From NCBI GenBank assembly GCA_008632985.1, contig QPGO01000095.1, positions 59,681-123,680 of the forward strand: 64,000 nucleotides of DNA. The letters run 5' to 3'. Shown here one piece after another: positions 5,926 to 51,166 of this stretch (positions are counted from its first letter, which is position 1; every line of letters begins with the position of its first letter). The stretch is from Psammoneis japonica (Eukaryota). Under the pieces are notes generated by a model. It did not search any database, was not told the origin of the DNA, and saw only the letters and a list, made by a program, of their open reading frames with translations. The translations under genes and the position numbers were made by a program.

Positions 5926-5929
5926 CTGT

Positions 5930-18526: not shown

Positions 18527-18919
18527 ACTGTGCTCTAGTAGAGAGACGGCTCTCTTCTGCTATAGCAATCGATTGTGCGCCCCAAACCCTAATTTGAGTG
18601 CAGAAACCTAAAGCACAAATGACAGAGGGAGCAGCAAACGGCAAAATCTAAAATCGTCAAACACGGTGCTCGCTGTTGCCGCACCACCGGCACGAATGCT
18701 CGCCCCATGACGAAAAGAATTACAGACATTGGTCCTCAGCAGTGTGAGCACACAGTCCCTCCAACTCCTTTGAGGGCAATGGATGCACACTTGCAGGAAA
18801 GAAATTCAGTGTCAAAAACAAGCTTCGCGGCAAAATTTAGAGACAGGAACGGGAGTTGCCAGTGGCCAGCTTCGTTCCCACCGATGAGAATGTGTGTGAT
18901 GCCTTTCATGTGTCAAGCA

Positions 18920-20090
18920 GAATCAAAGTCCTCCGCAACGCCAATGCAAGGTCACCTGACCTTCCAGATAAAATGGCGTGTCATGGCGCTTGATTTCCGC
19001 AACATTGTCCTTCCCGCTGTTGCCACAGAGAGTCAAATCAAGAGTGTCGAAAAAATCATACAAAAAGACCGAGGCAGCGCCCCCCTCGGATGCCTCGTTT
19101 TGTTCAAACACGCTTTCCACAATGGTGAGTTTTGGCATTTCACCAAGATCAGTGGCCAAAAATCCACCACCAAAGGTTCCAGTGTTCTCACGAAACACTG
19201 CTTGCACAGGGCATTTGTTGCCCAAAAGGACCGGAAGCTGTGGTGAGCATGCCTCCCCACCTGTGCCATCTGCATTGTTGTTCAAAACTCGCAATCAATT
19301 GTGTCAACCTGTGAAGCAGAGACAACCAGCAATCCTCCGCCAGCTTGCGCATCACCTTGGACAAATCGACTGCTCTGAATGAAGACATCGTCTGCCGTTC
19401 CAATGTGCAAATTCCCACCTCCATCGCGGTGTGGCCACCTTCAAATCTGCATCCAAAGATGCGGTGAGTTCCATTTGCAGCAATTGCCACATTGCCACCA
19501 CCAACTCCTTCCGCGTTCCTGCCTCCAACAAAGTCAACATTGACTAGAGTGAAATCCTCTCCCATCACCAACACATTTCTCGTGTCGACTCCAGCGTTCT
19601 CCACAATGCAATTCTCGGATTCGCAGCACAATGTCACGCCGGACTGTTCGACCGTGATTGCTGCAGGCGTTGTGATTGTGTTGGATCCACAAAGTGAAAC
19701 AGTGGCGACAGATCCCGCTTGATCAATCACTTGTTGTAATTCTGAATGGGACGCGACACACGGTCCCGTTGTGGGGACGCACGAGGGAGTTGGACTTGGC
19801 ACGGGAGCAGGGCCACAAGTTCCAGGTGGCATGCTCATGGACTCGTCTTCTTCCAACAGTCTTTTCCAAAATGCGGCACTCTCGGAAGATTCAACATCAC
19901 AATCGTGCATTTGGAGCATCCCGCGTCTGAGATGCGTCTCTTTGTTCTCTACTTTGGCTTGTTGTTCGCATCGATTTCGTCTCTGTTTTGTGAAATCAAT
20001 TGCTTGCACCCGTCCAATGGTGGTGTCAGTCAATGCCAGCACTGCTGACAAAAAGCTTTGACAGAACAATCTTAGACTGAAGCTTTTCAT
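18920..20090 (-). pseudogene. Secreted pectin-lyase-like/parallel beta-helix repeat protein, frameshifted and TA-depleted
   Basis: Signal peptide, diatom-type LRRG/RLL..SMSM motif, PAPVPSPTP linker, GGN/GGG...F..N.A..GGA repeats. No Tyr in the 300-aa ORF 19188-20090. Confidence 0.6.
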
Positions 20091-20541
20091 CTTCTTTGGT
20101 CAAATGCGGCGGCCGTTGGGCAATGGTTGTCATCTGTTTTGGTAGAATGCGGTGGCCGTCGGCATGGGCATGGCTTGTTTGGCATTGTGTGGCTTCGCAG
20201 AAAGAGAATGTGAGCGATCCAAGACAATGTTCGTAGAAAACTGTTGCCTTGACATTCAAATGAGGCCGGCTGTTCAGCAGTTCCTCCCAGCCAGATAGAA
20301 GAAGAAGAGAAAAGGAAAAGGAAGGAAAAAACAAACATTGATGAAGGTTTGAAAGGGTGCACTGCAGCACCGCAGTGTGCACAGTGATGAAGACGGACGC
20401 AGACAGGTGCAGACGCGCTGCGTGGAATTTGGTGCAAAGTTTCATGCGTTTGCGTGTGCAGAAGGATGTGGAACGCCAACGGCTGGAACAAAGCAGCACA
20501 CCACACAGCAGTCAGTGCAGCTCTGTCATCACGGTGCTAGA

Positions 20542-22004
20542 ATGGCGGAGGACAACATCATTGCGTCTGGCAAAGCTGAGGATGCAGCAGCTCCGGAAGT
20601 CATGGCAGAAGTCACGGGCACCAAAGGCGCGGCGGCAGTTGCCATGACTGCACTTGGTGCCGAGGGAAGTGCCGAGGGTGTGTCCGTCGAGTCCGAACGC
20701 GCAAGGATGTCGGAGAAGCCGGCGCAGTCCCAAACTGAAAAGAGGGAGAAAGCCGAGCCGCCGGAGCCAACCTTTCAAATTTGTGGTTGGAATGAAGCAC
20801 AGCAGCTGGGTTGCACCACCGAGCAGCTGCTTGAGGCCGGTCACAAGATCGAGTTGGTGGGTGATCAGGCCACCTTTGTGAAACCGGAGGTCCTGCCTTT
20901 TTGCAGCGGCAAAAGCGAGGAGGCAGCCAAGCCCGCGGCCAAAGTGGTCGCGAAAGCAACGGCGGAAGAGGAAGAAGAAGGAAATCAATTTCCGGACCCC
21001 AACGAACCGTCACTCGACTTGTGGGACTGGGTGTTGCGGCACGAAAAATCCGACAATTTCCAGGAGTCCATGTGCCTGATGAAGGATGCGCCGAACAATC
21101 CCGACCTCTGGTTCCCCGCGCTGGGAGAACTGGGGTGCATCAGGAGCGACCCTGAAGCCGTCGCGAATGCTCACGGCAAATGCTGCAAGTGGGTGTGGAG
21201 GTGCCGCACGGAAGTCGGCGAGAGGGGCATCCCAGACTTGACGCCGAAGAGCAACGAAGTGTTCAAGACCACCGTCGAGGCTTTCGAAGCGGGGTGGTCG
21301 CTCGCACTGGTCCACCTCGTGAAGAGAGTAAGCACAGAAGTGTGCACATTTGGATGAGGTGCCGTGTCATCCAACCTGCGTTGTTTTGCCTCAAAAAGTC
21401 CATTTGCTCCGCAGGCCCCAAGGAGGTGGAGGTGGGCGAGCTGCGCGCATCGCAACGGAGGGGCGCAGGCATTGGTTTTTTTGCTTTGCGCCAGTTCCAG
21501 AAAGGCAGTGCGGTTGGAATCTACGTGGGCCCCAGGGTGCCCGGCACGACGAGGAGCTGCTTGTGGTGCGACCACGACAGCAAGTTTGGAGAAGACCACA
21601 GCGTGTGCTGCTCTGCCATCCGTGACAGCGAGGGCCACTGCGTCACAGTGGAGCCAAAACCGCTTGATTTTAGCGGTCCAGGGAACAAGAATTCCCATCC
21701 ACTCTACCTCGGAATGCACCACGTGAACGATGCCACCGAGTCGTTCAAGGACAAGAAGAAGATCAAGGCAAGCCAACACGTGGACAACAACTGCAAGTTC
21801 TACAACGACGGGTGCTTGGCAGTCACGAAGCGAATCATGCCCGGGGAGGAATTTCTCTGCAGATGCAATTTGGACGAATCGGAGAAGAAGAAGAAGAAGA
21901 AGAGGAAGGCGACGTCGGGTGCCATGAATCGGAAGAAGAAATTGCGTCCACTCCCCAAGTCGGGGAGGAGAAGCTCCACGTCTGGCAAAACGTCTGCCGT
22001 GTAG
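20542..22004 (+). pseudogene. SET-domain protein (putative lysine methyltransferase), frameshifted
   Basis: AGIGFFALRQFQKGSAVGIYVG ... LYLGMHHVND ... NNCKF.NDG.LAVTKRIMPGEEFLCRCN follow the SET motif order; the terminal Tyr appears as Cys. Poly-K tail. Confidence 0.7.
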
Positions 22005-22226
22005 TTTGCTCTGTAAATTGGCAGCACAGTGTGTTGGTGTTTTTCAGCGAAACTGCAGCATCAGTTGGAAAGGCGTAGCCCCAGTTGTGGTTCGAAAAAT
22101 GGGAACGAGGAAGAACAGAAAGTCGGTAAATTTGATCAAATCTAGCAAATTGGTGGGTGCCTGCACAGTCGCCTGAGTGCAGAAAGTCAGCAAATTTACG
22201 CAAATTTAGCAAGTCATTTTGCACTG

Positions 22227-22805
22227 TCACAGTCGCCTGAGAATGGTCTCTTCCTCTAGAGAAAGGGGGATTGAATTGTTGTTCTTGCCCACTGCAGCAC
22301 TCTTCAGGTGGAGAGACACGCAGAAGAACTTGTCGTTTGAGCTTGTCCTGCTGGAGATGCAGTGGCACTTGGTGGGGTTAAAAATGATGACATCACCAAG
22401 CCGGAGTGCAACGGAGATGCCTTCGGTGGGGAAGCAGAAGTGCGCCACAATCCCGTCATTCATGGTGTGGCTGCCGGATGGAGGGACTCCCACCACGGTG
22501 ACTGCTGACAGGAAGAAGTCCTCGTCCCGATGGGCGTGGAGGAAGACATTGCGCCCAGCCGCCAGAGAGGAGAAAATGCCATCTGACTGCACCAGGGATT
22601 TCCAGTTGTGAAACTTTTTGACACAAGCGACACCCTTGAGGATGGCACAGTCCACGCACTCATTGACAAGGTGCTCCATGCGTGAAAGAAGTCTGGTGAG
22701 GTGGTGAGTGTGTTGGTCGGCTGTGCCAGGCTGCTTGCAAGAAATTCGAGCGTCTCTCGTGGCAGCCAGGCCAATCGTGGAACACTTGCTCCTGTCAGTC
22801 TCCAT
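22227..22805 (-). CDS. TET/JBP-like 2OG-Fe(II) dioxygenase domain (probably mutated)
   Basis: GIFSSLAAGRNVFLHAHRDEDFF (HxD), FCFP..GISVALRLGDVIIFNP..CHC (distal His), VSLHLK; layout like algal/fungal TET/JBP domains. Confidence 0.6.
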   Translation of the reverse strand: METDRSKCSTIGLAATRDARISCKQPGTADQHTHHLTRLLSRMEHLVNECVDCAILKGVACVKKFHNWKSLVQSDGIFSSLAAGRNVFLHAHRDEDFFLSAVTVVGVPPSGSHTMNDGIVAHFCFPTEGISVALRLGDVIIFNPTKCHCISSRTSSNDKFFCVSLHLKSAAVGKNNNSIPLSLEEETILRRL

Positions 22806-23739
22806 AGACGCAACCTGTTTGACGGGCAGACAGACGAATTGCTGTGACCGCCTCAGATTCCATTATTTTTTCTTTTCACGGAACTACCATGGGCCGATCC
22901 GACGACACTGTCTTGTTGACGCCGGTGCTCGACAAGAACGTAAATCTGCCGGACACCACTCGCGCTCGTGACAGCAAATACGGGGAACGTTTGTTCGGTC
23001 AAATAACATCCGGCTTGGGTCACTTCAACGGGCTCAGACTCCACTTGTGTCGACGAGGTATTTTCTGTCTCTTGCCGCTCGCTCACGGCACGAACCAATG
23101 CCTTTACTCGGCGACTTATATCTCTCTTTCCAAGACAAGCAGCCTGTCACCACTGGCGCTTTTATTCGGCCTTTCCTTCCTCTACCTGCTGCAGTGGCAT
23201 GCTTTCTGATGCGTCGTGCTGCTGACAGTAACTATGACAATCAATAACGTGTACGTTGATGTTGTGCACCGGCCCGAGTTCGACCTTGTTGATGACAAGC
23301 CGACAAACAACCAATCAGAATTGACAGGTTTAAGTGCTAAACTGTTGGTGCGGTGACATGAGAGGCTCTAAAGCAATTGACTAAAGTGATTGAACATTCC
23401 GTTGTTACGGCGAACGTTATCGTCATTGCACACGGTCATTTTTGCTGTGCTCCTTTCGTTGCGGTCGTGCATGTAACTAACGGCGCTTTTTGTTTCGGTG
23501 CAGTTACATCGTGGTTACTCCAGCTTCTTTGCGACAAAAAGCACAGAATAAGATGGGGATGCGGAAAGAACTGATGAAATCCGGGGGGGTTCTGTGAAAA
23601 CCTGGGGTGCGCTACTTCACTTATGTGCGTCCTCCGTCAGCACAATGACAATAAGATACAGAAGGAGTGTTGAAATGGCAATGGATAAGTTAGGTGGCAA
23701 GTGTTGGAGATATGCTAATAAGGATGGGAATACGATAGC

Positions 23740-24040
23740 TGGCATTCAACACATACTAGGTAGGTAGTGTTCGATAGCTACCGGTGGCATTCGATGCGAT
23801 GGCCAACAGTGGCCAGCATTCGATACTGTACGACAGGGTAGCTAGCATTCGACACTGTACGATAGGGTAGCTAGCATTGAAAAGCTAGAGTACTAGCATT
23901 TGACACGATGCGACAGATAGTAGTATTCGATAGCTACTGGTAGGAGTAGTATTTGATGTGATACGATGGATAGTATTCGATGCGATGCGGCAGCTAGTGT
24001 TTGACAGCTAATGTTCGATACGATACGATAGCTAGAGATC
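23740..24040. repeat. TA-rich short degenerate tandem repeats (~28-bp unit tagcattcgatactgtacgacagggtagc)
   Basis: Repeated tagc/ttcgata/tacgat motifs seen directly. Confidence 0.7.
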
Positions 24041-24169
24041 CCCAATATTGGATGACTTCTTAGATTTTACAACAGAAGCTGAGGGGATAAATGTGTCCTC
24101 TGACCCAAGCTATTAAAGTCAATGATAAAAACGGAAGTTATCCTTTAGTTACATGCACGACCACAACGA

Positions 24170-24680
24170 AGAAGCTCAGCAAAACGACTTTTGACAAGGA
24201 CGACAACGCCCGCCATGAAATGCAACACTCGGTTGCTCTTCTATATACAATAAACAAATGATACCAGCGATGAAATTCAATGGATGAAGCCAAATCAACG
24301 AAGTATAAACGACACGGCCAACGGCATGCGATCAAAAACAACAACACTGTGTGAAACGACTTTACACAACGACGACAACACCCGCCATAACAACAAAACA
24401 GTCGGTCACTCTTCTCAATGCAACAAACAAATGATACGAGCCGTGAAAGCCAATGGATGAAGCCAAATCAACAAAGTACCGGTGTGAACAACACAGCCAA
24501 TGGCATTTGATGAAAAACCACAACACTGCACACATAAAACGACTTTGTGCGACGACGACAACGCTTGCCACAGCAACTGAACATTCAAGCATGCTCTTCT
24601 TGATACAATAAACAAACATGATAGCCAACTTGCCAAGCCAAATCAATGAAGTAACATCGAAATAGCCAACAACGGACGAA
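24170..24680. repeat. Three diverged ~180-bp tandem units
   Basis: aaacgacttt..gacgacaac at ~24182, ~24354 and ~24537; gccaaatcaa recurs in each unit. Confidence 0.75.
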
Positions 24681-25851
24681 AAAATTGAATCCAATGTACT
24701 CAAAATTGCCTGTGGGTCCCGGTGGCACACAAGAGTTCCCAACAAGGTGCCCACACACCACATCTCTCATGTTGTTGTTGCTTGCATTGCCACTTCCATA
24801 ACACGGCCTTCTTTTGCTGGCACACGGCAGATGCAAGGGTGGAGCCGCACACCTTTGTAATGGTTCCTCTGGGGATCTCGCTTGCGTTTTGGGAGACGAT
24901 GCCGTGGGCGATTCTCATGTCATCACTGTAACAGGTAGAGGAAGGAGAGGTCAAATAAAAGCGCCAGTGGTGACGGGCTCCTTTTGACGGTAATGGAGAT
25001 GCACGTCTTCGAGTGGGGTGTGATGGGTCGAGCCGCAATGGGAGCTGAAGAGGAAAAAATGGGTTGGTGCCGATGATTCCTGAGCCCGTGAAAAGCGCAC
25101 AATAAAGGATGCAACTTGCCAAACATGAATCTCTTGGTCTCTATTGTTAAGAGCGCAAGTGGTGTCTGGGAGAGCAAGCGTCTTGCTGAACAGTGGTGAC
25201 ATCAAAAGAGGTTGTCGTCAGCGGCTGTGGTTCTGTCGTGGTAAAAAAATTCTGGCTCTGGAGGTGTCACAGCAATTCAGCGTCCGGGTTCCGTCTATGA
25301 AGGTAACGCGTTGTTTGCCGCGCACGGTGGGACTGGGCGGTGCAGCATTCTAGTGCTTCGAGCGCTCGGTGCTGAGCAACCAGTTCTGCTGGGTTGGGGG
25401 AGCTGAACACCACAGCAGAACGCGGCAGCAGGGTGCAGGTGTTGTCGCAGCGGCAACCGTCCAAGCCAAAGAAAGGCTTCAGATCGAGCACAGGGTCACA
25501 GACGACCAGAGGAGCCAATCCGGCAAAGTCAAAGTCAGCAAGACAAGGTGGTGCAGGCTGAGTGTAGTCGCCGTTATAAACTGGAGTGCGGTCAGCCACG
25601 CAGTGCATGGAGAGACTCTTAGTGGCGCACGGTGCGAGTGGAACGAGGCGAGCAATCTTGGATGTTTTCCTGCTGGCGCGGCTGCGGATTCGCCCACGGC
25701 TGCGGTGGGCCTTGCGAAGTGGCGGTTGAGCCCTCAACACGTGCTCGTGTGTCCTGGTGCGCATTGACGATGCGGTGTTCGCAGAGAACGTGTGTGCGAA
25801 CTTGCCGGCAAACGTTCCGCTGCTTGACACTGTCACTGTCGTCTCAACAGT

Positions 25852-26020
25852 GCCCAAAGCAGAACTCTGTCGACAGGGACCGGCGGACTCCAGGGGAGTG
25901 GGGTCAAAACCTAATCGAGAGATGTGTCTGCTTTCCGTTGCCTCAAGAGCACCCAAAGCAAAACTCTGTTGACAGGGACCGGCAGACTCCAGGGGAGTGG
26001 GGTCGAAACCTGATTGCGAG
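25852..26020. repeat. Two copies of a 99-bp-spaced direct repeat
   Basis: cccaaagca.aactctgt.gacagggaccggc.gactccaggggagtggggtc.aaacct at ~25853 and ~25952. Confidence 0.85.
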
Positions 26021-26504
26021 AAGCACTTGCTTGTTGTCGGGCTGCGAGCTGCACGTCCCAAACCCCCACACTGTCGAGACCGGCTGTAACTCGATCGCGA
26101 CAAGTGCTTGTCGTTGGTGGGACGACGCAGCAAGGCACGAGGCAGTTGCGACATGGTGTGTCTCAATTTGAAATGTGTTCAAAACACAATGACGGAAGTG
26201 TTGTCGCATTGTTTTTGTCTCCGCGGAGGGAGGATCATCCCACGGCAATCTCAGTGCGAGTTCTCGCGTAGAAGTGCATTGCGTGCCGTGCCAGCTCGTG
26301 TGTTTGAATTGCACGGACATGCAAGCACGGCAGCGATGAGAAGCAGGTCGAGATTCAAAACAAATTTTGCCGCCTGAAGGCGTCTCATTGTTTCAACGCG
26401 TCTGCACATCTGTTTGAAATGACTTTGTGCGTCGCTCCATGCGCAGGTAGAGGCAGCACGCAGCATTTGAAAATTTCGCGTGCACAGAGGGCACGACGGC
26501 AATT

Positions 26505-27472
26505 TTGCGCATTCTGCGCACGTCACAGTTTGGTTTGAAAACGCGACGTCTGGTCGAACCCGCTGCAAGCAAGGTTGATGTTGCCACAAGGTTGGATGCG
26601 ATGAACCATCGTTGCAGAAGTGTTGGGGAGTTTTGTCATCAAACGGCTCCGGACTCCGCGTTCCAGAGCAGGCATGTCTCCGGAGACGGAAGCGGATCTT
26701 TGCACGGCGGCGAAGTTGGCTTTGCTTTGAGCAGCGAAGTGTTTTTGAACGAACGCCTTCTTGGCGTGAATCACACCTGCGACACATCTGTCGACATGGG
26801 CAGGGGAGTTGCTGGACCCAGCATCGGGCTCAAGTTACTTCATCGCCGTTGCACCGTGGTGAGCATCGAGGCCGACCACGATCGTCACCAAGAGGCTGCA
26901 CGTTGGGCTCATCGTGCTGGCCTTTGCTCGAACGGTGGGTTGGAGTTGATCAACAAGTCATTCTTGGACGAGAGGCTGGCTCCTTTGTGGAAAAAGAAAG
27001 GACTCAAGGTGTTCTTCAACAACCACAACTCCCGCATGGTCGACGACAAGAACACACAGCAGAAGGCAGAAGCAATGCTTTCAAAGTTGTGTCGTGCTGG
27101 GACCGTGATGTGGTGGCACTAGATCCGCTGTTCGCGTCGTGTGCGGGAGAGTGGATGTGCGAGTCGTTCACGGCGGATTGCCATGATGGCGACTTTTTGT
27201 GGCACAGCGGAGACGTGAAACATCTCGTCTTCCACAAGCACACCAAGAAAGAGGAGACTTCTCAGTCAACCAGCCAGCACATGCGACGTCCCACTCCGAC
27301 ACACTTGGAACGGAAGCACTTGCCCGTCGCGAAATGGCCAATTTTACTCAAGAACTCAACTGGACTGTTTTTTTACTGTCACTGCACTAGACGTCACATG
27401 CTAGTTGCTCCACTCAATTCGCCATCGCTTCGTAGTGACGTAAAGTTGTCGTCGGAGATGGTGCATGCTTGA
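26505..27472 (+). pseudogene. DOT1-like class I SAM-dependent methyltransferase, frameshifted near 27105
   Basis: GSLHGGEV (cf. YGE), VDMGRGVAGP (motif I, DLGSGxG-like), VSIEAD, KSFLD, VFFNNH (cf. IFVNNF), then VVALDP...FLWHSG. Confidence 0.5.
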
Positions 27473-27559
27473 AGAGACAGAGGAAAGCTGAGTTGCAATC
27501 GACACTTAGTTTGCCAAACATTTGCAAATTTACACCACACCGGCAAAAAAAAAAACAAC

Positions 27560-28432
27560 TCAGTCTTCGTCACTGTCCTGAAGCACCAAGTCGTCATCGA
27601 CGTTCAGGTCAACTTCGCAGTTGAGCTCGACATCATCGTCGGCCTCTTCTCCAGCTTCTTCTGCCGGAGCTCCAATGAGACGACAGAGTTCCACAGGCAA
27701 CGACCCCTCGTAGAAGCAACTGTGAAGTGAGTTCTTGTTTTGGGCGTGCCAACCGATGTGAAACTGACCACCTTCCTTCTGAAGCTCGGCAATCGCCGCC
27801 TTGTTGCCGATCACTTCGGACCAAACAGCATCCTTCATCCAGAAGAAGTCATCTTCAACGAAGACCTCAGTGTTGTTCTCAGGGTCATCGTTGAGCTGCT
27901 TCGCAATGTGCTTCCCGAGGCCGCGCACTTTGGCTTCGGTTGGGACTTCTTCGAGGAAGATGAAGAAGAGACGCGCAGCGCAGTTCTTGGCGTTCGTCTG
28001 CAACTCGCCTTCGTGAACCCACCTGCCAGCGCAAGGGTGGAATCCGACTTGAACCGCCCACGGAGTCCTGCTGCGAAGGTTGTCAAACAAAACCTTCTCC
28101 GACCAAACATTGGTCAAAAGGGGATTCTTGGCTTGGAGACGAAAAACGACGCCTTTCTTGCGGCCGACAGTGACGGTGGCGCAGCGCAGGAGGGCGTCCT
28201 CATCGGAATGGCTGCCATCGTCAGAACCGGCGGATTTGGAAAGCTTGAACCCATGCTTGGCAAGGCAGTCTTCCGGTTTGAGGTTGTCGTCGGTCAAGCC
28301 ATTGGTCTTGCGGGGCGGACTTGGTTTCTTCAACAGAGCATCAGAAAACTTCGTCTTTGCCTTCTTCTGTTTGGTTTTGGCAACTTTGGCTTTCGCAGCC
28401 GGGGAGGTCGTTGTGTTTCTTTTGCATGCCAT
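27560..28432 (-). CDS. Hypothetical protein (basic N-terminus, acidic tail), probable element cargo
   Basis: Open ~290-codon frame with protein-like composition and a single Tyr. Confidence 0.55.
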   Translation of the reverse strand: MACKRNTTTSPAAKAKVAKTKQKKAKTKFSDALLKKPSPPRKTNGLTDDNLKPEDCLAKHGFKLSKSAGSDDGSHSDEDALLRCATVTVGRKKGVVFRLQAKNPLLTNVWSEKVLFDNLRSRTPWAVQVGFHPCAGRWVHEGELQTNAKNCAARLFFIFLEEVPTEAKVRGLGKHIAKQLNDDPENNTEVFVEDDFFWMKDAVWSEVIGNKAAIAELQKEGGQFHIGWHAQNKNSLHSCFYEGSLPVELCRLIGAPAEEAGEEADDDVELNCEVDLNVDDDLVLQDSDED

Positions 28433-28908
28433 CGAATCAGTCGGAGAGAAATTGTGGGAACAAAAAGTGCGATCATCCAGATGTGCCAAGAAAGACCCAG
28501 CAAAGCTGCGCACATCATGCCAAGGAGAACTGGCAACGTCAGCAACTAGATCCAAACACGTCGAACTGCAACAAGGCAACCTTCCAGGTGTCAGCACTTG
28601 CAAGTGGTGCATGGATTCAATTTGAACAAAACAGATGCAAGGATCGGAGCATGCAAAGTCGCACTGAGTTTGCTGAAAATGCGTAAAATCACGCGCAATT
28701 CCGTCCGTGCTTCGTGTGCATTTCAGCCGTTGCTGCCGCGTAGCCAAGGTGGGCCCATCACCCATTTGGAGGATTCGCGCGCACTTTGGAAACACGAATG
28801 ACGTCAATCGCATTGTCGCTGCCACACGACTAACTCAACTGCCCCGCCACTCGTTAAAACGTGATTCTACAGAATTTACGTAAAGCTGCGCCCACCACCA
28901 AGATTGCC

Positions 28909-29011
28909 GAAACAACTTGAACAAGATCCGAATCTTACCCCATGGAATGTTCAGAGCAGATGGTCAAAACAACTTGAACAAGATCCAAATCTCATCCCAT
29001 GGGATGTTCAA
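28909..29011 (+). repeat. 57-bp tandem duplication (KQLEQDPNL.PW.VQ x2)
   Basis: Seen directly. Confidence 0.85.
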
Positions 29012-29249
29012 CGTCGACGAAACCAAGCAGGATGTCATGCGTCTGGTGCAAAGAAGGACGTGGGAGGAACGCACATGTCGCTCTTCCATCGAGGTGAAAG
29101 AGGCACACTTTCGTCTCACTTTTTTGTGACAGAACCTTTGCGCAAAGGGAAACGAAAAGCATCCAACTACAGTGATTGGGCCACACCAATCGCAGTTCTC
29201 AGTTCTCACAGTGACCTGGCAACGCAGGTTGTGAGATGATGCACAAGCT

Positions 29250-40100: not shown

Positions 40101-42100
40101 TCTGCTTCAATGCCAAATTGTTGAGTGTCACAAGGGTCATCACACATTGGTGTGCATTGTGCACGCATCATTGATTTGGGTTGATGAGAAAGTGATCCAT
40201 GTCAACTCCAATCCAAACCAAAGAAGCACTTGATTGCCAGCTGGCAAATGGTCATGAGTTGTCCCCCAGTTTGTTCCTTCTGCCTGTGCTGATCTCAAAC
40301 TCCAAGCACATTGCTGCCTGGCAGTCTCTTTCTCCTCTGCTCCCAAATCTCTGTCATGCATCTGCACCAACTTTTTGATTGACTCATGAGCACTCACAAG
40401 CTTGCGCCACACATGCCTGCCTGCCAATGAAGCTTGGTTGCTGCTGCCAGCCATCCTGCTGAGTGAGCTGCCCAGCTGGGGTGGGCCAGCAAGTTGTCCA
40501 GACCAGTGGCCACAGTGTGTTGTGGTTTGAGAGTCCATGGCCACCCCTTCCACCATGGCTCCCATGTCTGCACCCACCATGACAGTGGCTGCAGCCTCCA
40601 CCACCAAAGAGGTCTCCATTGTCTTGTGCTTTGAATGATGCTGAGCCTCCAGTTAAGGCTCTGGGTGCAAGCACAAGACTTTTGCAAAACAGAAAGCACA
40701 TTGTGAGCTCACAAAATTGAGAAGTGATGTTGGCTGACAATGGCTGCACAAGCCTGGAGACAAGCACCACCACTCTTCATGGCCTCAAGCAATGTCTCCA
40801 CCTTTTGCTGGTCTGATTTCTGCTCATCTGGGTCTTTCTCTGGGTCAGCCAATGTGCTGGTTGACTTTTGTGTGTGATGCTCAAACAACAAGTTCCACTC
40901 ATTCTTGCAGCACAAGGTTTTGACATGGGCCAATGCCAAGTGAGTGCACTTGCTGAGCTTGCCCTGTCCACCACAACAGTCTGCCTGTGCCCACAGAATG
41001 CATCTCTGTCACCACTCTCTGGAGCACTGTGTGGCTTGACCCATGCCCAAGCTGCAATGTTGATCAAGTGCTCCTTTGGCATCCAATGAACAGCATGACT
41101 GTCATCTTCAAATGCAGCCCTGTCAACTGGCAGCTGGCACACATGCACTCCTCTGCATCATCCTTGACAAATTTGTCAAACGCAGCAGGGCTGCAGATTA
41201 AAAATGTGCTTTGTCCCCAGCCACACCACAAAATCCTCCTGGACAAATTTGGCTTGGCCACTTGCTGGGGCATCTGATTCCAACCTGTCTTTTTGTGATG
41301 CACTCAAGCTCAAGCCCCACATTCATGGCTGCTCTTGATCAAACCAAGGCACTGCCATGGCTTGCCCACACTTCTGATGATGCTCAAGACACCGTTGCAC
41401 CACAAAGCCCATGCAAACTCTCAATCTCTACTTTGCCAAGCTGCTGCACCCATCAACTCTGGCTCATCATTCACAACTGCAATGTTGTTTGAGGCAGAAA
41501 GACCTTCCATGGTGTGCCAACTGTGCCCTCATGACATGACCGGGTGCTGGGATGCCACACACCTGCAGAGCAGCACCCACATTTGGTGCTGTCATCACCA
41601 GAGCTGCCACAACACTGCTGCCACTGCTGCAGCCCCACAATGTGAAATGAGGCAGACAAGCTCATGTCCAATCTGGGTGCTGCACTGTGACCCCAGGAAT
41701 TCTGGGTGAAGGAGACCTTTTTTCCATCTGGATGATGCAACAATGGGCTTGCACTGCCAGCACACACTGGGGTGGCCAGCCCCACACAATTTTGTCAAGT
41801 TTGTTGAACACATGCCCAGACATGCATGCATGATGCTGCAGCAGCCCTGCACCCACTGTTGGTGACTGCTGCTGTGTGGGGAGAACATGTCTGTCACACA
41901 TGATGCTCACTGCTCTGGCTGTTCCACGCCCACAAAAACAAAAAAATGAGGTCCTGCCAGTCTCAACACTTGATGATTATGATGATGTGCATGCATGAAA
42001 CCCAGCACAAAACTCACACACAACAGCAGCCCATTTGATCAACACAAGTGATGGCTGCAGTGCCAAAGTCATCAACATGACCTGCTCACATCTGCTTTTG
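37140..42100 (-). mobile_element. Degenerate Ty1/Copia (CoDi-type) retrotransposon with gag, chromo-like region, RT and RNase H
   Basis: Relics: AFGIKMDFTHEERFITGSHTT...VHSSEVSRKSSRL...DLENVHL (RT); WEFLVVWKD.GTSW...DEPAFAW; SKCWRMTHKCG; ESALHKKHNA (RNase H); AWAWVK (gag). Confidence 0.88.
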
Positions 42101-45100
42101 CACTCGCATGTGCGCGTCTGCCCATGCAACTGCACAAAGAGCTCCAACAAAGCAGGAAAATGCCAGCACAATCAACAGTGACACCACACAGACAAATGAC
42201 TTGCTGAGTGGCTGGTGCTGCTGCAACAACCTCCTGCACATCTCAGAAGTCAGTGACTTTCTTCTCATGGAGAGAGAGCGAGCCATCTGTGCACTTCAAT
42301 TGAAGCCATGAAGGAACCATTGGCAGACAGACCACTGCACCCCAATTTGAAATTTATTTTCACACCAAACAAACACATGCTGATGTGATGCTGTGTGGCA
42401 GACAAACAACAGTCAACAAAACAGCAAAGACTTCATGATCCATGGCTGAATGATGACTGGCCCACAACTCAAACTCTTTTTTTGACTTTGAGCCAAAGCA
42501 AGAACATTGCAAATCATCAAGTGTCATTTCCACTTCGGCACAAAGAGAGTCAAATGCTTGCTGCAGCAGTCAGATTTCAAATTCTGAGCAATGCAGCAGA
42601 GTCAACAGTGAACAAGGATTTGCTGTCATTTTTTGCCATTGCAACATCAATCCAATCCAGGCAACAAATGTGCAAAATAATTTGCACCCCACATTCTCAT
42701 TTTGAACTTTGATGCATCAGCATTTGTTGATGCACAACAACAACAAAAGCATGCTTTTGTGTGTCAGGCCACAAGCTCTGAAGTGCATGTTCACACCTGG
42801 ATTGAACTTTTGGGGAGCTTGATGTTGAAAGCAGCCATTTGTTTGAATTTTGTCATTTTGCATTGTCCACAAACTGGGATTTCAGCTGAGTCGAGTGGAT
42901 GTTCGACATGTTTCAAAGCACCAAAATTGATGAACAATTAAGGGCTGTGGTTTTACAGTGCTTTGCACCACAGAAACATTGACAAAACAGTTGAGGACTG
43001 TGGTTTTACAGTGCTTTGTGCCAAAGAGACACAAAATGGCAAACAGGTTGACAAACAAGAAGTGATGGGGGGTTTGCAATTTTTCTAAATTGTGAGAATG
43101 AAGATTGCAGCACTGCCTGATGACTGACCAACAACCAGAAGAAAGAAACAAGAAGTGACTCTTCTCTTTGCCCTTGAATTGACAGAGATGAGCACATGCC
43201 AAAGACTTGAGGAGAACAATGCATTCTTGAATGCCCAAAATGAGAAAAGAGAGTTGATGCACCTCACTCTTGTCTTGAACCTTAGACCAAGTGGTGGCAT
43301 TCTCATGGTTTGACCACCCCACAGCTGGTTGAGAGGTTGATGGCATTTTCTGTGACTCACAGCTTGAGGCATGTTGGTGCATGAACACATGTGCAGCATC
43401 GCCTTTGGAGCATGCTGCTTGCTGGAACTGGAAGGGGCAGTTCTCTGTGCCCAGGCTTTGTCCATCAGCCACTCTGTCACAGAGGCATCTCTGTTGCTGC
43501 ACCTGCTGCTTCTTTGTCAAGAGAAAGTCCAGAGTCAAGGCCACTCCCCAGCTGTTGACAAAACAGCACCTGCAAAACCTTCATGCCTGTGTCCCCCCCC
43601 ACAGAGCAGCTCTTGGGGACAGTGCCGCCCACATGCTGGGCTGCAATCAAGGCTGATTTCCAAGCTGCAAGCTGAGACATTCAACCTGGGGGTTGTGAGC
43701 ACTCTCACAATTGCTCACAAGACATGGGGCAACAGGCCCATGGCAGCACTGAGTTCTTCCTGCACAGCTCACCATGGGTGCACCCAGACCTCCAGAGTGC
43801 CAGCCCAGCTCACACCAGGAGTCACCCTCCTTGCTGCCACAACAGTGCTTTGTGCCATTGGGAGAGCACAGACAAGCTGGCTGGACTGGGGGGCTGCCCA
43901 ACCCCACACATCACAGCCCCTCACAACCAAAAGCACCAGCTTGAGGGTTGCCACTGCTGCAAAGATCCCAAACCAAAGCTGGTGGTGGTGGCAGGAGCTC
44001 TTGTTGGCACCCCTTGCTGCTGCAGCAGCTGGTGAACAATGGTGTGCAAGCCTGCTCAAGTTTCTTTGCCAGACTGTGTGGGGCTGCTCACTCCTTTAAA
44101 TGACAAGCACAAAAATGCTGTCAAGTGGGCCATTCTCTCATGTCCAAACTTGCCCCCATCCATTGCCAACACACAAATGTGTGAGTGGCCTGCCCTCAGT
44201 TTGGCTCTGTCCTCAACCACTTGATGGGATGCAAAGAAGCTGTTGCTGTGTGGTGACAGCAACAGGTTTTCCCTCATTGTTGACCCCACCCATTTTTTCC
44301 CTGCATGTCCATTTTGTTTTTGCTGGAGGCAAGCCTGATGTTTGTGTGTGGACATGAACTGAACACATTGTTCATTCACTAAATTAAAATGTGTGAAAAA
44401 TGTGTGTGCTCAGCCATGAAGAGCCTCTGTGCAATGATGCACCTTCTGACACAAATGCTTGACATTTCAAATTTCCCATGACTTGTAAAAAATGCAACAC
44501 ACACTCCATCAACAGCCACAAACTCACCACAACACTGACACATGTCAACAGATCACAATTGGTTTCACATGCACATGCCATGCTGTGCTTCAAAATTGAT
44601 TGATTGCAGCAAAAACAGCTGAACAAATGTTCAATTTTTGCCCATCACTTTTCAACTGCACAAGTCAACAACAAGCCTGTCACACTCTCACACGTCAATT
44701 GTGCCACACATGAGTTCACAAGATGCAACACAGTGTTGATTGTTGTGGCTTTTGAAGGTGACACCATTGAGAAAATGGTGACCACAAAGTTGCCATGGTG
44801 AGGTGATTTCAGTGGTTTCTGGCTTCAGCACACCAACAGGCAAGTTTGCACTGAATCTGAGTCGTGCTTGTTGAGTTAGCATGGCTGCCACTTTGTGCAT
44901 CATGTGCCCACCATTCTCAGTGGTGGGGCAGGCAGCAAAAAGAAAATTGTGATTCAGCAAAAAAAGAAACTCAGATTGTTGACACAGCACCTTGCTTGCT
45001 GCTGCAAGCAGGAGAGCACCCATTTTTGCTGGCCAATGCATGGTCTGAAACAAAAGCATGTGCTCCCAAACAACAACCCATTGTTGGAAACACTGCTCAC

Positions 45101-46019
45101 ATTGAGCTGAGCTTGACTTGTGATGTGTCAGCAGCAGAGACAGACAAAAAAAAGACTGGGAGGCTCCTCAAGGGCATGTTGCCAGCCACAGACAAGCACG
45201 CAAGTTCATCATGCACCCAGCCCAGGCACTGGCACATTGGGCACAACACACAGTTGTGGGTGGAGAGCATGATGCCATTTGCAAGTCAAGCAATGTGCTC
45301 CCAAAGCACACATGATCCACCAGCAGCTGGGAGGAGCCTTCCTCAGCAAAGAGGGCAGCATCTTAGAGGTGCAGTCACCCTGGGCAACAAAGAGCCAACA
45401 AAAATCTGGTCCTGTTTGTGTGGTTGAAGTGAAGAAGCTCTTGGCAAAGTTGGGTCCAAGAGTTCAAGCATGCCAAGCATGTGACCTGAAACATGCCAGC
45501 AATGACAACTCTCCTCTGCACATGCCAGCACAGGGTCTGAAGCAAGCAGCCAGGCTTGCAAGTTTTTTTTCTCCCTGGCCCTTCCCAAATGCAGCCTTTG
45601 AGTCAATGTGTGGCACAGCTTGAGCAGCCAAATCATGCTGCTGGAGGAGAGCACCTAGAGGAGCAGTGAGGAGCTGGCTCAGCCAGTGCCCTTAAAGCCA
45701 GTCTGGCATGCTCAGCTTGGCAACACACACCACTCTGTGTCACATGGTTGCTCTGCAGCAGCTGCAATGTGCGCTGCCCCAGATGACAAGGAAGAAGCCA
45801 ACAAATCTCTGGCCCTGCTCCCATGTCAATTTTTGTGTGCGCTCGGTTGCAGTTGTCAAAAATCCCCTCCTTTTTCCCCTTTTCCTGTTGTCCGGCCATG
45901 AACATAAAAAATTGCCAACAGAAGGCTTCCTTGTTGTCAACTCAAAAGAAATGAAACAAGCCCTTCAAGGGGGCACTGATGACTGTGCTCACGTGAAACA
46001 TGAGAAATTTCCAGAAATG

Positions 46020-46925
46020 CAGATGGAAACAAATGGTGGTCAATGTGTGCACCAGTGCTGTTGCCACATGGCAGGTGTGAGAGCATGAAGGATCCTGTGA
46101 CACAGTGGTGGACAGCACAAAGTGTGCAGTGGAGTCACTGCACAAGGTCCTGACCCCCCCACAACTCTCGCATGAGTTGATGCCACAAAATCACCACACA
46201 TTGCAATGCATGAACTCCAGTCAGAACCCGGATGGTTTGCAACAAACTGCTGCATTCCTGCAACCAATCTCAGCACTGAGTCACACACTCAGTCAGTCAG
46301 TCACTCAGTCACTCACAAAAACAAGCCCTTTGGCACTGACCATGGCAAGACTGCACAATGTGCAGGGTGGCGTGCTGGGCCTTCATGTGTCATTTTGACA
46401 GTGTGCACTTTTCGCGCAGCTCCATCAGAACAAGGTTCTTGCATCAACTGTTGAGATGCATGAATGCTGCTCAACTCAACACAAAAGAGCAACAAGTTGT
46501 TGTGTTGCATGACACACAGTCATTTGACACTTCACAAGGGCAACCACACAAGGTCCTGACCCATCTCAACTCTTGTGCAAGTCAATGCCAAGATTGCCAC
46601 AGATTGCAAATGCACAGAAATGAGGATGGAAATGAACAGTGGCTGATGTGTGTGCCAGTGCTGTTGCCACATGGTGTGCATGCATTGAGGATCACAGAAC
46701 ATGGTGGCCCACAGCACAAAGTGCACAGACGAGTCATTGCACGAGCTCCCAACCCCCTCACAACTCTCACATGAATCCATGTAAAAACACCATGCATTGC
46801 AATGCACAAACTCCTGTCACAAACTGTTGCACTCCTGTGACCAAACTCAGCAGCACTCACTCACTCACTCACTCACTCACTCACTCACTCACTCACTCAC
46901 TCACTCACTCACTCACTCACTCACA
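46020..46925 (+). repeat. Two diverged ~300-bp repeat copies (46020-46320, 46625-46925), each ending in a (TCAC/TCAG)n tail; possible non-LTR 3' ends
   Basis: Shared ccagtgctgttgccacatgg, cagcacaaagtg and cacaactctc.catga; tails at ~46290-46316 and ~46855-46924. Confidence 0.65.
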
Positions 46926-46975
46926 AAAACACTTTGACATCACTTGCCTGGGTGGTCAGTGAAAACTTTGACATT

Positions 46976-47288
46976 NNNNNNNNNNNNNNNNNNNNNNNNN
47001 NNNNNNNNNNNNNNNNNNNNNNNNNNNNNNNNNNNNNNNNNNNNNNNNNNNNNNNNNNNNNNNNNNNNNNNNNNNNNNNNNNNNNNNNNNNNNNNNNNNN
47101 NNNNNNNNNNNNNNNNNNNNNNNNNNNNNNNNNNNNNNNNNNNNNNNNNNNNNNNNNNNNNNNNNNNNNNNNNNNNNNNNNNNNNNNNNNNNNNNNNNNN
47201 NNNNNNNNNNNNNNNNNNNNNNNNNNNNNNNNNNNNNNNNNNNNNNNNNNNNNNNNNNNNNNNNNNNNNNNNNNNNNNNNNNNNNNNN
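46976..47288. other. Assembly gap (N run), followed by (CA)n
   Basis: Seen directly. Confidence 1.
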
Positions 47289-47329
<41 letters not shown>

Positions 47330-50200
47330 TTTGAAAAAATGAGGCCATGGCCATGCTGCGGGCCTTTGGCCTGGCACCTCCACCCCCAAATCTCTGAAAA
47401 GTTGCACCAATCTCTAGAGCATTCATGCGCTGAGGTGGTGCGGATGCAAAAGTGGGCCAGATTGGAAGCGCATGGAGCTTGGCATGTTTTCCACACAAAT
47501 CGCAACTTCAACTCTTTCCAAACCAACAGAAACTTGGACATGTGAACATTGGGATGATTTGACAATCTGGTGCATCGCAGCTTCCACGCATTTGAGCCAA
47601 CCATTCCAGCACTGTGTCATGCCCCCAAAAGACACTGGGCTCTTCATTGCTTGTGTCGGTCAAGTGTGTCAGCAAAGCCTGAGCCAGTGTCTTGCCACCA
47701 TTTCCGGCACAGCAATCCACCATGGTTTCACCAGCCTTTGCCTTGGTGGCTTGCACTGCGAGCATCTTTCCAACTTGGCATCACCCAATGGACTGTTTGC
47801 GTGGATGGTCCGGCAATTGGACCGGCCTGCATGCTTTGTGATGCACTCAGGACAAATTGTCATTGTTCACCATGACCATGCAAACACTCTGCAGAGATGC
47901 AGCCACAATGTCTTCCTCTTGTTCAAGCCACTCTGCAAGAGCATCCGCAGATGGACATTTCAAAGAGTTGCACCTCAGTGTGATTGGACCAAGCTGATTG
48001 AACATTCAACACAGCTGCTTGGCATCTTTTTTCCCACATTGATCTGCAAGAATCTCCACAAAAATGAGCAGTGGGCTGCACTGTGTGGACAAATGTTTTG
48101 TTGTTTCACGCGACCTTTAGATTGCAGGGAATGCGCTGTTGTTTTCAATGCAGAGCGCTTGGGTGTCAATCATGGATCTGATCTTGTGGCTGTTGGGTCT
48201 TGTGTTGAACACAACTGCTGCATTCCACAGGTGCTCATGATGCAGTCACATGATCAATGTGCCCAGCATCAGTTTTGACAACCATGCTTGCATCCACTGA
48301 AAGTCCTGCCAGGTGAAACTTTCAGCATCTGTGGATTTGGGTGCTTGTTTCAGAGCCTTTTCTGTGCTTGCAGCACTGTCATTTTGCCCACTCAATGCCC
48401 CTTTGAGTGTGTTTGCCACCGTGGTGCATGCAAGGTCTTCCAAAGGATGAGTGGAATCAATGGAATCTTTTTTCAGTTGACAATTCATGCCTCCCAGCTC
48501 CAATGGCAGCAATGGCCATCTTGACAAATGACGGTGGCAACAACACCTCAGATTCAGTGAGCACCACGCACATTTCTGAATGAAGCCTGATGGCAACAGT
48601 GACACCACTGCAAATCTCATGCTTCCTTTTCCATGTGGCATTGTCATCTGACTCCCTTCTGCTGTTGCATCGATGCACTGTGTCATGGCGCCATCATTGT
48701 TGTTCTCAACTCATTCAAATGCAGAGGTGTCAGCACCAAGGTGACAGGTGTGGCTGGTGCCAGTGTGGCCACTTTCCAGAAAGAACTGTTCCCTGATCAT
48801 GCTTTTGGTGCCAACTTTAAAATGTCAATGCAAGTGGCAGGAGTGTGTTGGAGCATCTGGATTGCAGGAGTTGCAAGGAACCCAGATGTGTTGAAGAGAA
48901 AGCATTTTAACTCCTGATGTGGTTCCATTGGTGGCTCTTCATGAGAGAAGTTTCATCATCACCAATCTGTCACCTTTCAGTTTCATCTCACACTTTAGAG
49001 CAAATCATTTGGTTTGTCATTTGGTGTCACTGAGTGCCTGCTGCACCACAAAATTGAAGTTCATGTTGACAACTTTTGGCAACCCACAGCCTTTGCAGTT
49101 CACCAAAGCAAGTGCATCAAGCAGCACAGAAAGCCCAATGAGGCTCCCTTTTGGCGACATTCACTTGCCAGTTCAATGGCCAAGGCTTGCCAACACTTCT
49201 GATGACTCCAATCATGCCACTGCTCCAAAGCCTGCAAGCTCTTAATCTGCACCACTCCAAGCTGCACTCCTCTGTTCTGGCCCACACAATGCCCACACAT
49301 TCCCACTTGCCACATTCAAGACATTCACATTGTCATCCACAGTGGTGTTCTCTGAGACAGAAAGACCTTCCATGGTGCACCAGCTGTGCCCTCACAACAC
49401 AATCCACAGTGCCCACATCTGGCGCTGCTGCCAGAGCTGCCAAAACTGCTGCTGCTGCTGCCACAACAACACCCCACTGTGTCAGATGAGGCAAATCTTT
49501 GCACTGCAATCATGGTGGGTTGCCACAACAAACTGAAATGTCATGGTCACCAGCCTCACACCATTTTGTCAAGTTTGTTGAGCAAACACTCAGGCACACA
49601 CACACCCAACATTGCAGCAGCCCTCCACACCTGACAGAATGTGTGTGGAGAGCATTGCTGTCCTCACATGTTCTCACAGGTCACAGGTGCTCACTGCTTC
49701 AGCTGCTCCACATTCACAAACAATGCAGCAGCAACATTTTCAACACTTGACAATGTGACATGCAGTGTGAGTGCTTGCAACCCAGCACAAAAACCCCTCA
49801 GCCAGCAGCAACCCATTTGATCAACACAAGTGTGAGATGGCTGTGCAATCATGGTGGGTTGCCACAACAAACTGGAATGTCATGGTCACCAGCCTCACAC
49901 CATTTTGTCAAGTTTGTTGAGCAAACACTCAGGCACACACACACCCAACACTGCAGCAGCCCTCCAGCACACCTGCCTGACAGAATGTGTGTGGAGAGCA
50001 TTGCTGTCCTCACATGTTCTCACAGGTCACAGGTGCTCACTGCTTCAGCTGCTCCACATCCACAAACAATGCAGCAGCAATGTTTTCAACACTTGATGAT
50101 GTGACATGTGTGAGTGCTTGCAATCCAGCACAAAAACCCCTCAGCCAGCAGCAACCCATTTGATCAACACAAGTGTGAGATGGCTGTGGCACTGAAGTCG
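47330..50200 (-). mobile_element. Second degenerate Copia-like element (5' region, gag, integrase remnants)
   Basis: 49350-50200 is homologous to the 5' part of the first Copia (41480-42100), e.g. cagaaagaccttccatggtg and ttttgtcaagtttgttga. Weak integrase-like remnants at 47350-48400. Confidence 0.55.
49500..50190. repeat. ~340-bp tandem direct duplication
   Basis: tgcaatcatggtgggttgccacaacaaactg...acacaagtgtgagatggctgtg occurs twice (from ~49505 and ~49844). Confidence 0.9.
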
Positions 50201-51166
50201 TCAACAAGCTCCGCTCACTTCCACACTTCTGCCTGCAGCCAAGTCAACAGCTCTCTGTGAAGTGAGCAAGTGTCAGTGCAACAAACAGCAGCACCGCTGC
50301 TCTGACAAAGGACATGCCAAGTGGGCTGCGCTGCTGCAAAGCAACCTTCTGCAAGTGTCAAAAGATTTTGTGAGACTTGAGAGAAAGAAAGCCACCTGCG
50401 TGCCAGCCCAAGCTGTGGCCACAGTCGACGAAGGTGCTTTTTCACTGTCAACAACAAAGCTGACAAAGGAGGGGCTTGGCTGCTCAGTGTGCCCAAGAAC
50501 AGCGCCAGCACAAGTGATGATGACAAGGCCAAAGTTGCGAAAGTCGTTGGCCTGGGGCCTCAACCCCCAAATCTCTTGGCAGCCACACCAGTCTGGCATG
50601 CGTGCACCCGACAAAGTATGCCTGCGTGCAGCGCAGAGCCAAGGCACAGACAGATGATGCCATGCAGCGCTCAGGAAGGCGCCATGGCTGCGCACGAAAG
50701 GAACGAGGACAAACTCAGAAGATTCGTCAATTTTTTGAGACGTTTGAGGTAGATTTTGATGGATTGGCGATTTTTTTGAGACGTTTGAGCGAGATAGATG
50801 GATTGGCGATTTTTTTCGACACTGTACTGTAGAGGATTAGCGAGCCCAAGAAACATAAATTTCTAATGTACAATATAAATACATGTATGTGTATAGAAGC
50901 AACCATCGATGATAACAAAGTTATACACAAAATCCATAAATATGGTGTGTGATAACTAAGCTGGCACGTCACGAGCGCTATTTTTGTCGATGGCATTTGA
51001 CCGTTTCTAAACTGTACATACCGGTAGGAAGTTTGAAACTCGCAAAAAATGAGACCTTATTTGGTTTTTAATAAGAAGCGGCCGTTTGGACAATGGATGC
51101 ATTCTTAGAACACTTTCGAGTGCAATGTTGGGATCGGCAACTGAATTGAAACGAGACGAGATCAAG

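Follow-up and report, generated by a model that had tools for sequence, protein, structure and literature searches.

Probable TpA-specific A:T-to-G:C hypermutation of mobile-element DNA in the genome of a likely diatom

The 64,000-nucleotide stretch of contig QPGO01000095.1 analyzed here (the window) carries, next to ordinary host genes, blocks of mobile and repeated DNA in which the dinucleotide TA is nearly absent and its place is taken by TG and CA. Our analysis indicates that this composition most probably results from a local, mutational, TpA-specific A:T-to-G:C hypermutation acting within mobile-element DNA. The affected DNA comprises one copy of a high-copy Helitron family, a relic of a Copia-type retrotransposon, an old block bearing a gag fragment, tandem repeats and blocks of unassigned identity.

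The host stretches at 8900-18550, 50800-58150 and 61700-64000, which together contain 844 TA in 19,303 nt (43.7 per kb), served as a baseline, with strand-symmetric observed/expected ratios (o/e) of 0.61 for TA, 0.95 for CG and 1.18 for TG/CA; the number of TA expected in each block was derived from the host density, and significance was calculated from the Poisson distribution. An earlier, sequence-only reading of the window had described TA as almost missing from the repeat blocks and plentiful in host DNA, and the counts bear this out, since the interval 18600-50740 that it had flagged contains 299 TA compared to 1405 expected at host density. Within the depleted blocks only 1-11 TA per kb are found (TA o/e 0.03-0.18), with 32 TA against 131 expected at 1-3000, 126 against 520 at 25000-36900, 31 against 436 at 37000-46975 and 6 against 140 at 47289-50500 (counts for the other blocks are given in Table 1), and the Poisson probabilities of the deficits range from 6e-23 to 3e-142. 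The borders of the blocks are sharp within 250-500 bases: in bins of 250 bases the TA count jumps from 0-3 to 7-21 at the block edges, which these counts place at 8.75, 18.75, about 22.75-23.0, about 25.0-25.3 and 50.5-50.75 kb. The flagged interval is depleted overall but is not one continuous depleted stretch, as TA is normal at 23050-24950 (98 against 83 expected). Likewise, of a further block that had been delimited at 58.2-61.5 kb, the parts at 58.25-58.75 and 59.0-61.5 kb are depleted, while the remainder is not.

The loss of TA is balanced by a gain in TG and CA, whose o/e is 1.42-1.96 in the depleted blocks compared to the 1.18 of host DNA. In every block the gain in TG+CA approximately equals the loss of TA, plus the loss of CG where CG is depleted as well: in the Helitron block (25000-36900) 394 missing TA are matched by 429 surplus TG+CA (2178 against 1749 expected), and at 37.0-46.98 kb, where 405 TA and 466 CG are missing, the surplus of TG+CA amounts to 951. 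AA/TT is not depleted in the blocks (o/e 1.13-1.32), which argues against a general drift from AT to GC; ApT is slightly low (0.69-0.84 compared to 0.96), at least partly because ATA is converted to ACA and TAT to TGT. Two kinds of blocks can be distinguished. In the blocks at 18.75-22.75 and 25-36.9 kb only TA has been lost (CG o/e 0.76-0.85), while at 3-8.7 and 37-50.5 kb both TA and CG have been lost (CG o/e 0.10-0.18). The CpG loss in these older blocks is most simply attributed to a second process, the usual decay to which methylated CpG is subject. TA in the Helitron has fallen to approximately 30% of the host ratio and CG is still at approximately 90%, demonstrating that TA is lost much faster than CpG decays.

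The direction of the change was apparent when the Rep-helicase frame of the Helitron was compared to 50 full-length Helitron relatives that are 28-45% identical to it and were used as outgroups. The frame comprises 1886 codons, is interrupted by a single stop (codon 1623) and has, as counted earlier, 9 Tyr codons, which are all TAC and are never preceded by A, so that Tyr makes up 0.48% of its residues compared to 3.55% in the relatives. Among the 489 columns that are at least 70% conserved in the outgroups, the window frame matches 404, including 398 of the 465 non-Tyr columns, whereas it keeps only 6 of the 24 conserved Tyr and has Cys (10), His (5) or Phe (3) at the others. Conserved Trp (13/13), His (17/17), Gln (17/17) and Cys (17/18) are retained (Fisher P 2e-10 for Tyr versus the other conserved residues). 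When each outgroup was left out in turn, 81% of Tyr were kept, and the 189 changes included 107 to Phe, 20 to His and 6 to Cys. At the 47 columns in which Tyr is the majority residue, the window has Cys 25 times (22 TGC, 3 TGT), His 8, Tyr 7, Phe 5 and Thr and Ile once each. Both Tyr of the Rep motif are needed for Helitron transposition; the first is replaced by His (HTIKY, 32567-32581) and the second is kept. This column and that of the His in WVHVVLSRV are each 98% Tyr in the outgroups, as the sequence-only reading had supposed for both motifs. The nearest relative found, a 312-residue protein with 73% identity (P0104), has 10 Tyr, and at these positions the window carries Cys in 5 cases, His in 2, Phe in 2 and Tyr in 1; a search for protein fragments of the same family retrieved no copy above 73% identity, and the ends of the Helitron could not be fixed by visual inspection. 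At silent sites of the Helitron frame, codons preceding an A end in T in 18 and in C in 208 cases, compared to 127 and 212 in host genes.

Similar results were obtained for the Copia relic, which extends over approximately 36.9-42.4 kb and retains 98 of 177 conserved columns in a comparison with 14 polyproteins. None of its 6 conserved Tyr is kept, the replacements being His (2), Cys (2), Pro (1) and Arg (1), and changes of the CpG type occur alongside (Ala to Val, 4; Arg to Trp, Cys, His and Gln). Motifs in which Tyr had been expected agree for the most part with the homologues: the His of VHSS corresponds to Tyr in 11 of 11 and that of ENVHL in 10 of 11, and in SKCWRMTHKCG the Cys of SKCW corresponds to Tyr in 8 of 12, while the Cys of HKCG aligns with Phe in 8 and with Tyr in only 4 of 12. 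The upstream end of the relic (41776-42092) is 67-68% similar to the tandem 340-bp units at 49505-50188, 8 kb away, and most of the pyrimidine-purine differences that they share are TG/CA doublets (11); the two regions may be long terminal repeat (LTR) remnants of related elements.

The genetic code translates such a change into replacement of Tyr by Cys or His, of Ile (ATA) by Thr or Met and of Val (GTA) by Ala. Moreover, TAA and TAG vanish without any possibility of new stop codons, so that dead elements keep long open frames.

A tandem array of about 8.5 units near the start of the window (Table 1) demonstrates that the change took place in situ. The array has 15 variable pyrimidine-purine columns, of which 6 contain TG and CA, 3 contain TA, TG and CA, 4 contain CA and CG and 2 contain CG and TG; the 6 columns with CG each show one product and never both TG and CA. 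Of the 100 differences among its 342-bp units, 56 lie in 28 TG/CA doublets, and 82 are transitions. Since TA, TG and CA are mixed within single columns, the units must have been mutated independently after duplication, on either strand and at the level of DNA.

The loss of TA depends on the neighboring bases. Relative to host density, ATA/TAT survives in the Helitron at 0.03, GTA/TAC at 0.24, CTA/TAG at 0.37 and TTA/TAA at 0.40, while in the old blocks all four contexts have fallen to 0.01-0.13. When the window frame was compared to the coding DNA of 16 related Helitron loci that are unmutated (70.5 kb, 45.5 TA per kb), survival was 0-0.05 for ATAN/NTAT and considerably higher for the other contexts (GTAC 0.27, CTAC 0.43, GTAA/TTAA 0.51-0.52, CTAA 0.71, CTAG 1.03). 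Only 4 of the 70 surviving TA have a 5' A or a 3' T, compared to 1608 of 3212 in the baseline (P 1.5e-15). This ATA/TAT preference is new in the present analysis. The hot site can be described as a T between two A or, equally, as an A between two T, and the motif therefore does not tell which base is altered; the point made earlier for the palindromic TA, that it cannot separate adenine from thymine chemistry, thus extends to the wider, likewise self-complementary ATA/TAT.

The same signature was found in other Helitrons. Among 43 related metagenomic Helitron loci, 2 have a TA o/e below 0.1, while the other 41 lie at 0.36-0.90. One of the two, L008, has a TA o/e of 0.01-0.03 (13 TA in 7761 nt) and a CG o/e of 0.30, and it encodes an unbroken Helitron frame of 1882 codons (2047-7692) with 2 Tyr. 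L008 keeps 446 of the 489 conserved columns, with 426 of 469 (91%) at non-Tyr positions compared to 94-97% in three unmutated controls, whereas all 20 conserved Tyr have been lost (Cys 12, His 5, Phe 3), including both catalytic Tyr, and codons before A end in C in 292 cases and in T in none. Of the loci examined, it is the cleanest example of the signature. The second locus, L014 (1-3907), has a TA o/e of 0.05-0.08 and keeps 2 of 11 Tyr; its first approximately 350 bases have a normal TA density, which places a block edge within the contig. Among Helitron proteins in databases, P0109 (NCBI source) and P0073 (ENA source) keep 0 of 8 and 3 of 12 conserved Tyr, with Cys or His at such columns, while others retain theirs, such as P0106 with 10 of 10; P0110 (ENA source) has no Tyr in 107 residues.

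To assess read support, we used contigs built from the reads of a DNA run (X1), which cover the window. A 5901-nt contig with a depth of 65.6 matches 36695-42595 with 5 differences and no gaps, so that the text free of TA and CG is present in the reads as well as in the assembly. The differences seen with the X1 contigs are for the most part transitions, with 650 transition and 104 transversion places. Within 37-42.3 kb the Copia relic has a single-copy-like read depth of about 70. The dispersed element at 23106-25014, which has internal tandem repeats and no long open reading frame (ORF), reaches a summed depth of 377-1007, i.e. 5-14 times this value; among the 20 differences listed for it (of 40 listed out of 765), the window has TG/CA where other copies have TA in 4 cases and the reverse in 1. 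The Copia relic was hit in spite of being single-copy-like, while the dispersed repeat was spared, and copy number alone thus does not explain the targeting. The earlier description of the process as restricted to repeats consequently holds insofar as the depletion stays within mobile or repeated DNA and ends abruptly at its borders, whereas the data do not support targeting of duplications in the manner of fungal repeat-induced point mutation (RIP).

A TpA-specific hypermutation of mobile-element DNA may involve a deamination step at adenine, a chemistry that we put forward tentatively, at somewhat less than an even chance. The adenine of a 5'-TA in DNA would be deaminated to hypoxanthine, which would be read as G at the next replication, and each TA would become TG or CA according to the strand hit. 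An ADAT2/TadA-like or another deaminase would be a candidate agent, targeting might follow a silencing or 'foreign DNA' mark rather than sequence duplication, and the effect would be the disabling of mobile elements; the role in defense, like the enzyme, is something we infer. In the tRNA substrates of ADAT2/TadA enzymes, editing takes place at A34, which is invariably preceded by U33, and the same preference in DNA would amount to a 5'-TA rule. Deamination of both A and C in DNA has been reported for the amphioxus enzyme BjADAT2 (PMC10354150).

Several observations weigh against this account. The best context in the window is TAT, with a 3' T preference, whereas A34 in the substrates of tRNA adenosine deaminases is followed by G, C or A. 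The dispersed repeat at 23.1-25.0 kb shows no TA depletion. Among the 20 differences listed for the Helitron (of the same 40 out of 765), no lone TA versus TG/CA was found: 8 are TG/CA in the window and CG in all read contigs, 1 is the reverse, 8 lie in 4 TG/CA doublets and 3 are of other kinds. The first group shows that this copy is undergoing CpG decay as well, and the comparison of copies suggests that part of the TA loss of the Helitron may go back to source copies that had been mutated earlier, instead of having been made at the locus. Finally, X1 may be the assembly's own sample.

The last point bears on the explanation that modified bases in element DNA were systematically misread in sequencing or assembly, all the more as the platform of X1 is not on record. 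We regard such an artifact as highly improbable, as a 5.9-kb read-derived contig of normal depth differs at 5 bases only, the signature is also present in unrelated metagenome assemblies and database proteins, and, according to a recent preprint discussed below, lines of Bigelowiella natans sequenced with Illumina technology acquired it in the form of new, heritable mutations. An equally remote explanation is that the elements are natively poor in TA, through selection against TA or descent from a TA-poor donor. It would account for the bare composition, whereas conserved and catalytic Tyr have been replaced, units of one and the same tandem array differ as TA, TG and CA, and 41 of the 43 related Helitron loci have a TA o/e of 0.36-0.90; moreover, we know of no active relative in which transposition takes place with Cys or His instead of the catalytic Tyr.

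The altered base might instead be thymine, if the T of TpA were oxidized or otherwise modified (5-hydroxymethyluracil or 5-formyluracil formed by TET/JBP-type enzymes, or alkylation), paired with G and was thereby changed to C. All counts fit a T flanked by A equally well, TA and ATA/TAT being self-complementary, and thymine modification at TpA exists in other protists. We nevertheless consider it unlikely, as no direct evidence points to it and near-pure transitions would be more typical of deamination; the authors of the B. natans preprint also favor adenine deamination, with an ADAT2-like candidate. An untargeted regional bias, by which silent, late-replicating or poorly repaired chromatin is hit at TpA with no function in defense, would be compatible with a single-copy Copia relic that is affected and a dispersed repeat that is not, and these blocks also show CpG decay, a sign of silent, methylated chromatin. 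The depletion is extreme (o/e 0.03-0.18), however, and its edges are sharp to 250-500 bases; in L008 all 20 Tyr are lost while non-Tyr residues are kept at 426 of 469, compared to 94-97% in controls, indicating a very high rate relative to background, and in B. natans the process was switched on in only 11 of 15 lines. Such a bias therefore appears improbable to us.

If TpA-specific hypermutation is accepted, it is conceivable, although we would not expect it on present evidence, that TpA-directed DNA editing is an old defense shared across lineages of the stramenopile-alveolate-rhizarian (SAR) group, at least by stramenopiles and rhizarians, with an ATA/TAT core, aimed by a silencing mark and killing elements by missense changes that leave their frames open. 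In that case, a comparison of genomes with and without the signature would lead to the first natural enzyme that introduces mutations at the adenines of double-stranded genomic DNA. The ATA/TAT preference provides a concrete specificity against which candidate enzymes can be tested, and a natural DNA adenine mutator would be of interest for the biology of genome defense as well as for base editing.

The positions of the features are compiled in Table 1.

Table 1. Features of the 64,000-nucleotide window (counts of TA and CG are observed against expected at host density)
Feature	Position	Strand	Evidence and remarks
Tandem array of a 171-bp unit (about 8.5 copies) with a higher-order period of 342 bp	872-2326		Inside TA-poor block 1-3000
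Old element block, TA and CG lost	3001-8750		TA 11 against 249 (3001-8700); CG 61 against 291
Host gene stretch (baseline)	8900-18550		UQ_con, VTT, GT8, GT90, TerC domains across baseline; TA o/e 0.61, CG o/e 0.95
Block with loss of TA only, long overlapping ORFs on both strands	18750-22750		TA 25 against 175; CG o/e 0.76
Dispersed element with 91-bp inverted repeats (79% alike)	23106-25014		Repeats 23106-23196 and 25014-24924; normal TA and CG
One copy of a high-copy Helitron family	25000-36900	+	Summed read depth 2400-5300; TA lost; CG 660 against 608
Helitron Rep-helicase frame	29927-35584	+	Helitron_like_N, PIF1, DUF6570 domains
Reverse transcriptase and RNase H remains of degenerate Copia-type retrotransposon	37222-39490	-	tblastn of 14 polyproteins; stops and frame changes
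Further TA- and CG-poor DNA	42400-50600		Includes N run 46976-47288 and two tandem LTR-like units 49505-50188
Smaller TA-poor block outside the flagged interval	59000-61500		TA 24 against 109; TA o/e 0.15, CG o/e 0.55

The host genes are long single open frames with GT8, GT90, TerC, UQ_con and VTT domains, and the window is eukaryotic. The top matches of the GT8 protein are environmental proteins with 56-57% identity, its sole close named match being a Nitzschia protein with 50%, and the host is thus probably a diatom or a close relative. A host ORF at 53249-56353 (-), encoding 1034 residues with sulfotransferase-like, PLOD-type glycosyltransferase and GT90 matches, adjoins the GT8 gene (56233-57609), and the two may form a glycan-modifying gene pair. 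A perfect 69-bp tandem duplication (53167-53306; 2.0 copies, 100% identical) lies at the 3' end of this glycosyltransferase ORF, with a 90.8% identical repeat pair nearby at 52907-53215.

Pfam searches were run on sets of 105 and 104 ORFs, of which all 105 and 98 of the 104 lie in depleted blocks. Among these approximately 200 depleted-block ORFs, a single match exceeded the Pfam curated cut-off, namely the gag-like zinc knuckle of ORF 4205-4495 (-) within the old element block (zf-CCHC, E 3.7e-5). The SET assignment previously made from EEFLCRCN is a lead only, as ORF 21156-22001 (+) is SET-like by Atlas features (score 0.95) and found no Pfam match even at E 10. In the regions 18750-22750 and 25000-29900, overlapping ORFs of 150-424 residues are open on both strands, none of them with a Pfam match; for the 424-residue ORF (27563-28834) Atlas returned no result. 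Long ORFs on both strands are to be expected, because DNA free of TA leaves only TGA as a stop codon, and they constitute a trap for annotation, in which long false ORFs appear on both strands and real genes escape Pfam. The two tandem 340-bp LTR-like units at 49505-50188 show 10 differences, all transitions, 6 of which lie within 3 TG/CA doublets. A (CACT)n microsatellite (46854-46924) ends about 50 bases ahead of the 313-base assembly gap at 46976-47288. Self-comparison of the window revealed few internal repeats, and hence no LTR pair usable for dating.

Among known systems, fungal RIP resembles the process described here in that a local hypermutation with sharp borders wrecks mobile elements and shifts dinucleotide ratios. 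RIP changes C to T, generates TpA and stop codons, and requires duplicated sequence in the sexual phase, whereas in the window the change runs the other way, stop codons are not generated and a single-copy-like Copia relic is hit. RIP was therefore rejected, TpA being destroyed rather than created. Decay of 5-methylcytosine also yields TG and CA, and it is present as a second process at 3-8.7 and 37-50.5 kb and in the private changes of the Helitron; the removal of TA, in contrast, lies beyond its reach. In agreement with the sequence-only reading, the loss of TA is thus mutational, directed from TA to TG/CA, and due to neither RIP nor 5-methylcytosine decay. General AT-to-GC pressure or GC-biased conversion was rejected as AA/TT is intact. 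Polymerase eta has a WA motif in which AA and TA are both hot, and it produces many transversions; mutagenesis of this type was rejected, as AA/TT is not depleted and transitions predominate (82 of 100 in the array, 650 against 104 in X1).

APOBEC3, which converts C to U on cDNA, and ADAR, which converts A to inosine on double-stranded RNA, are likewise mutagenic editors of invaders with a preference for particular neighbors. Unlike these enzymes, which act on replication intermediates, the process in the window has altered both strands of resident DNA in situ, namely of a DNA transposon and of a tandem array. ADAR prefers a 3' G. RNA editing of the ADAR type, fixed by reverse transcription, was rejected, because the Helitron and the tandem array were hit in place and TAG/CTA is among the best-surviving contexts. 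ADAR also favors sites with a U immediately 5' of the A to be edited, as summarized in a preprint (Mettrop et al., bioRxiv 10.64898/2026.01.13.699255).

The closest counterpart is described in that preprint, the sole relevant paper retrieved in a full-text literature search, which found no report of TpA loss in diatom elements. The sequence-only reading knew of no description of the process. One now exists, as the preprint, which dates from 2026 and is the first and only report of this signature, describes the same TpA-only A:T-to-G:C change in 15 mutation-accumulation lines of B. natans (Mettrop et al.). Of 302 nuclear point mutations, 231 fell in two integrated viral regions, and 230 of these 231 were A to G or T to C, with all transitions at TpA; mutation proceeded at approximately 6e-7 per site per generation and was apparent in only 11 of the 15 lines. 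The larger viral region is single-copy and silent, TpA-poor coding sequences of B. natans are enriched for DDE and reverse-transcriptase domains, and the authors propose DNA adenine deamination, naming an ADAT2-like candidate (Mettrop et al.). Similar to the situation in B. natans, the change in our window is confined to TpA, runs from A:T to G:C and yields TpG and CpA; it spares host DNA in favor of foreign or mobile DNA (of which one dispersed repeat is spared as well), and its long-term trace is a loss of TpA with a gain in CpA and TpG. In contrast, B. natans is a rhizarian (a chlorarachniophyte) and its targets are viral, while the host here is a stramenopile, probably a diatom, in which a Helitron family, a Copia relic and tandem repeats have been hit. 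Depletion is near saturation in the window (o/e 0.03-0.18) compared to a Rho of 0.45 in the nucleocytoplasmic large DNA virus region of B. natans, and the ATA/TAT preference was found only here, the words context, flanking and trinucleotide being absent from the accessible text of the preprint, as are diatom, stramenopile and Helitron (Mettrop et al.). The window thus provides another case of a very recently described kind, independent of the first and much closer to saturation, rather than a new category. It extends this kind to a host that is probably a diatom and to transposons, and it adds the in situ change of tandem repeats, the ATA/TAT preference, the consequence of open frames and environmental Helitrons with the same signature. 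As the signature is saturated in a probable diatom and recurs in environmental Helitrons unrelated to it, it may be a widespread algal way to disarm mobile DNA rather than a peculiarity of a single strain.

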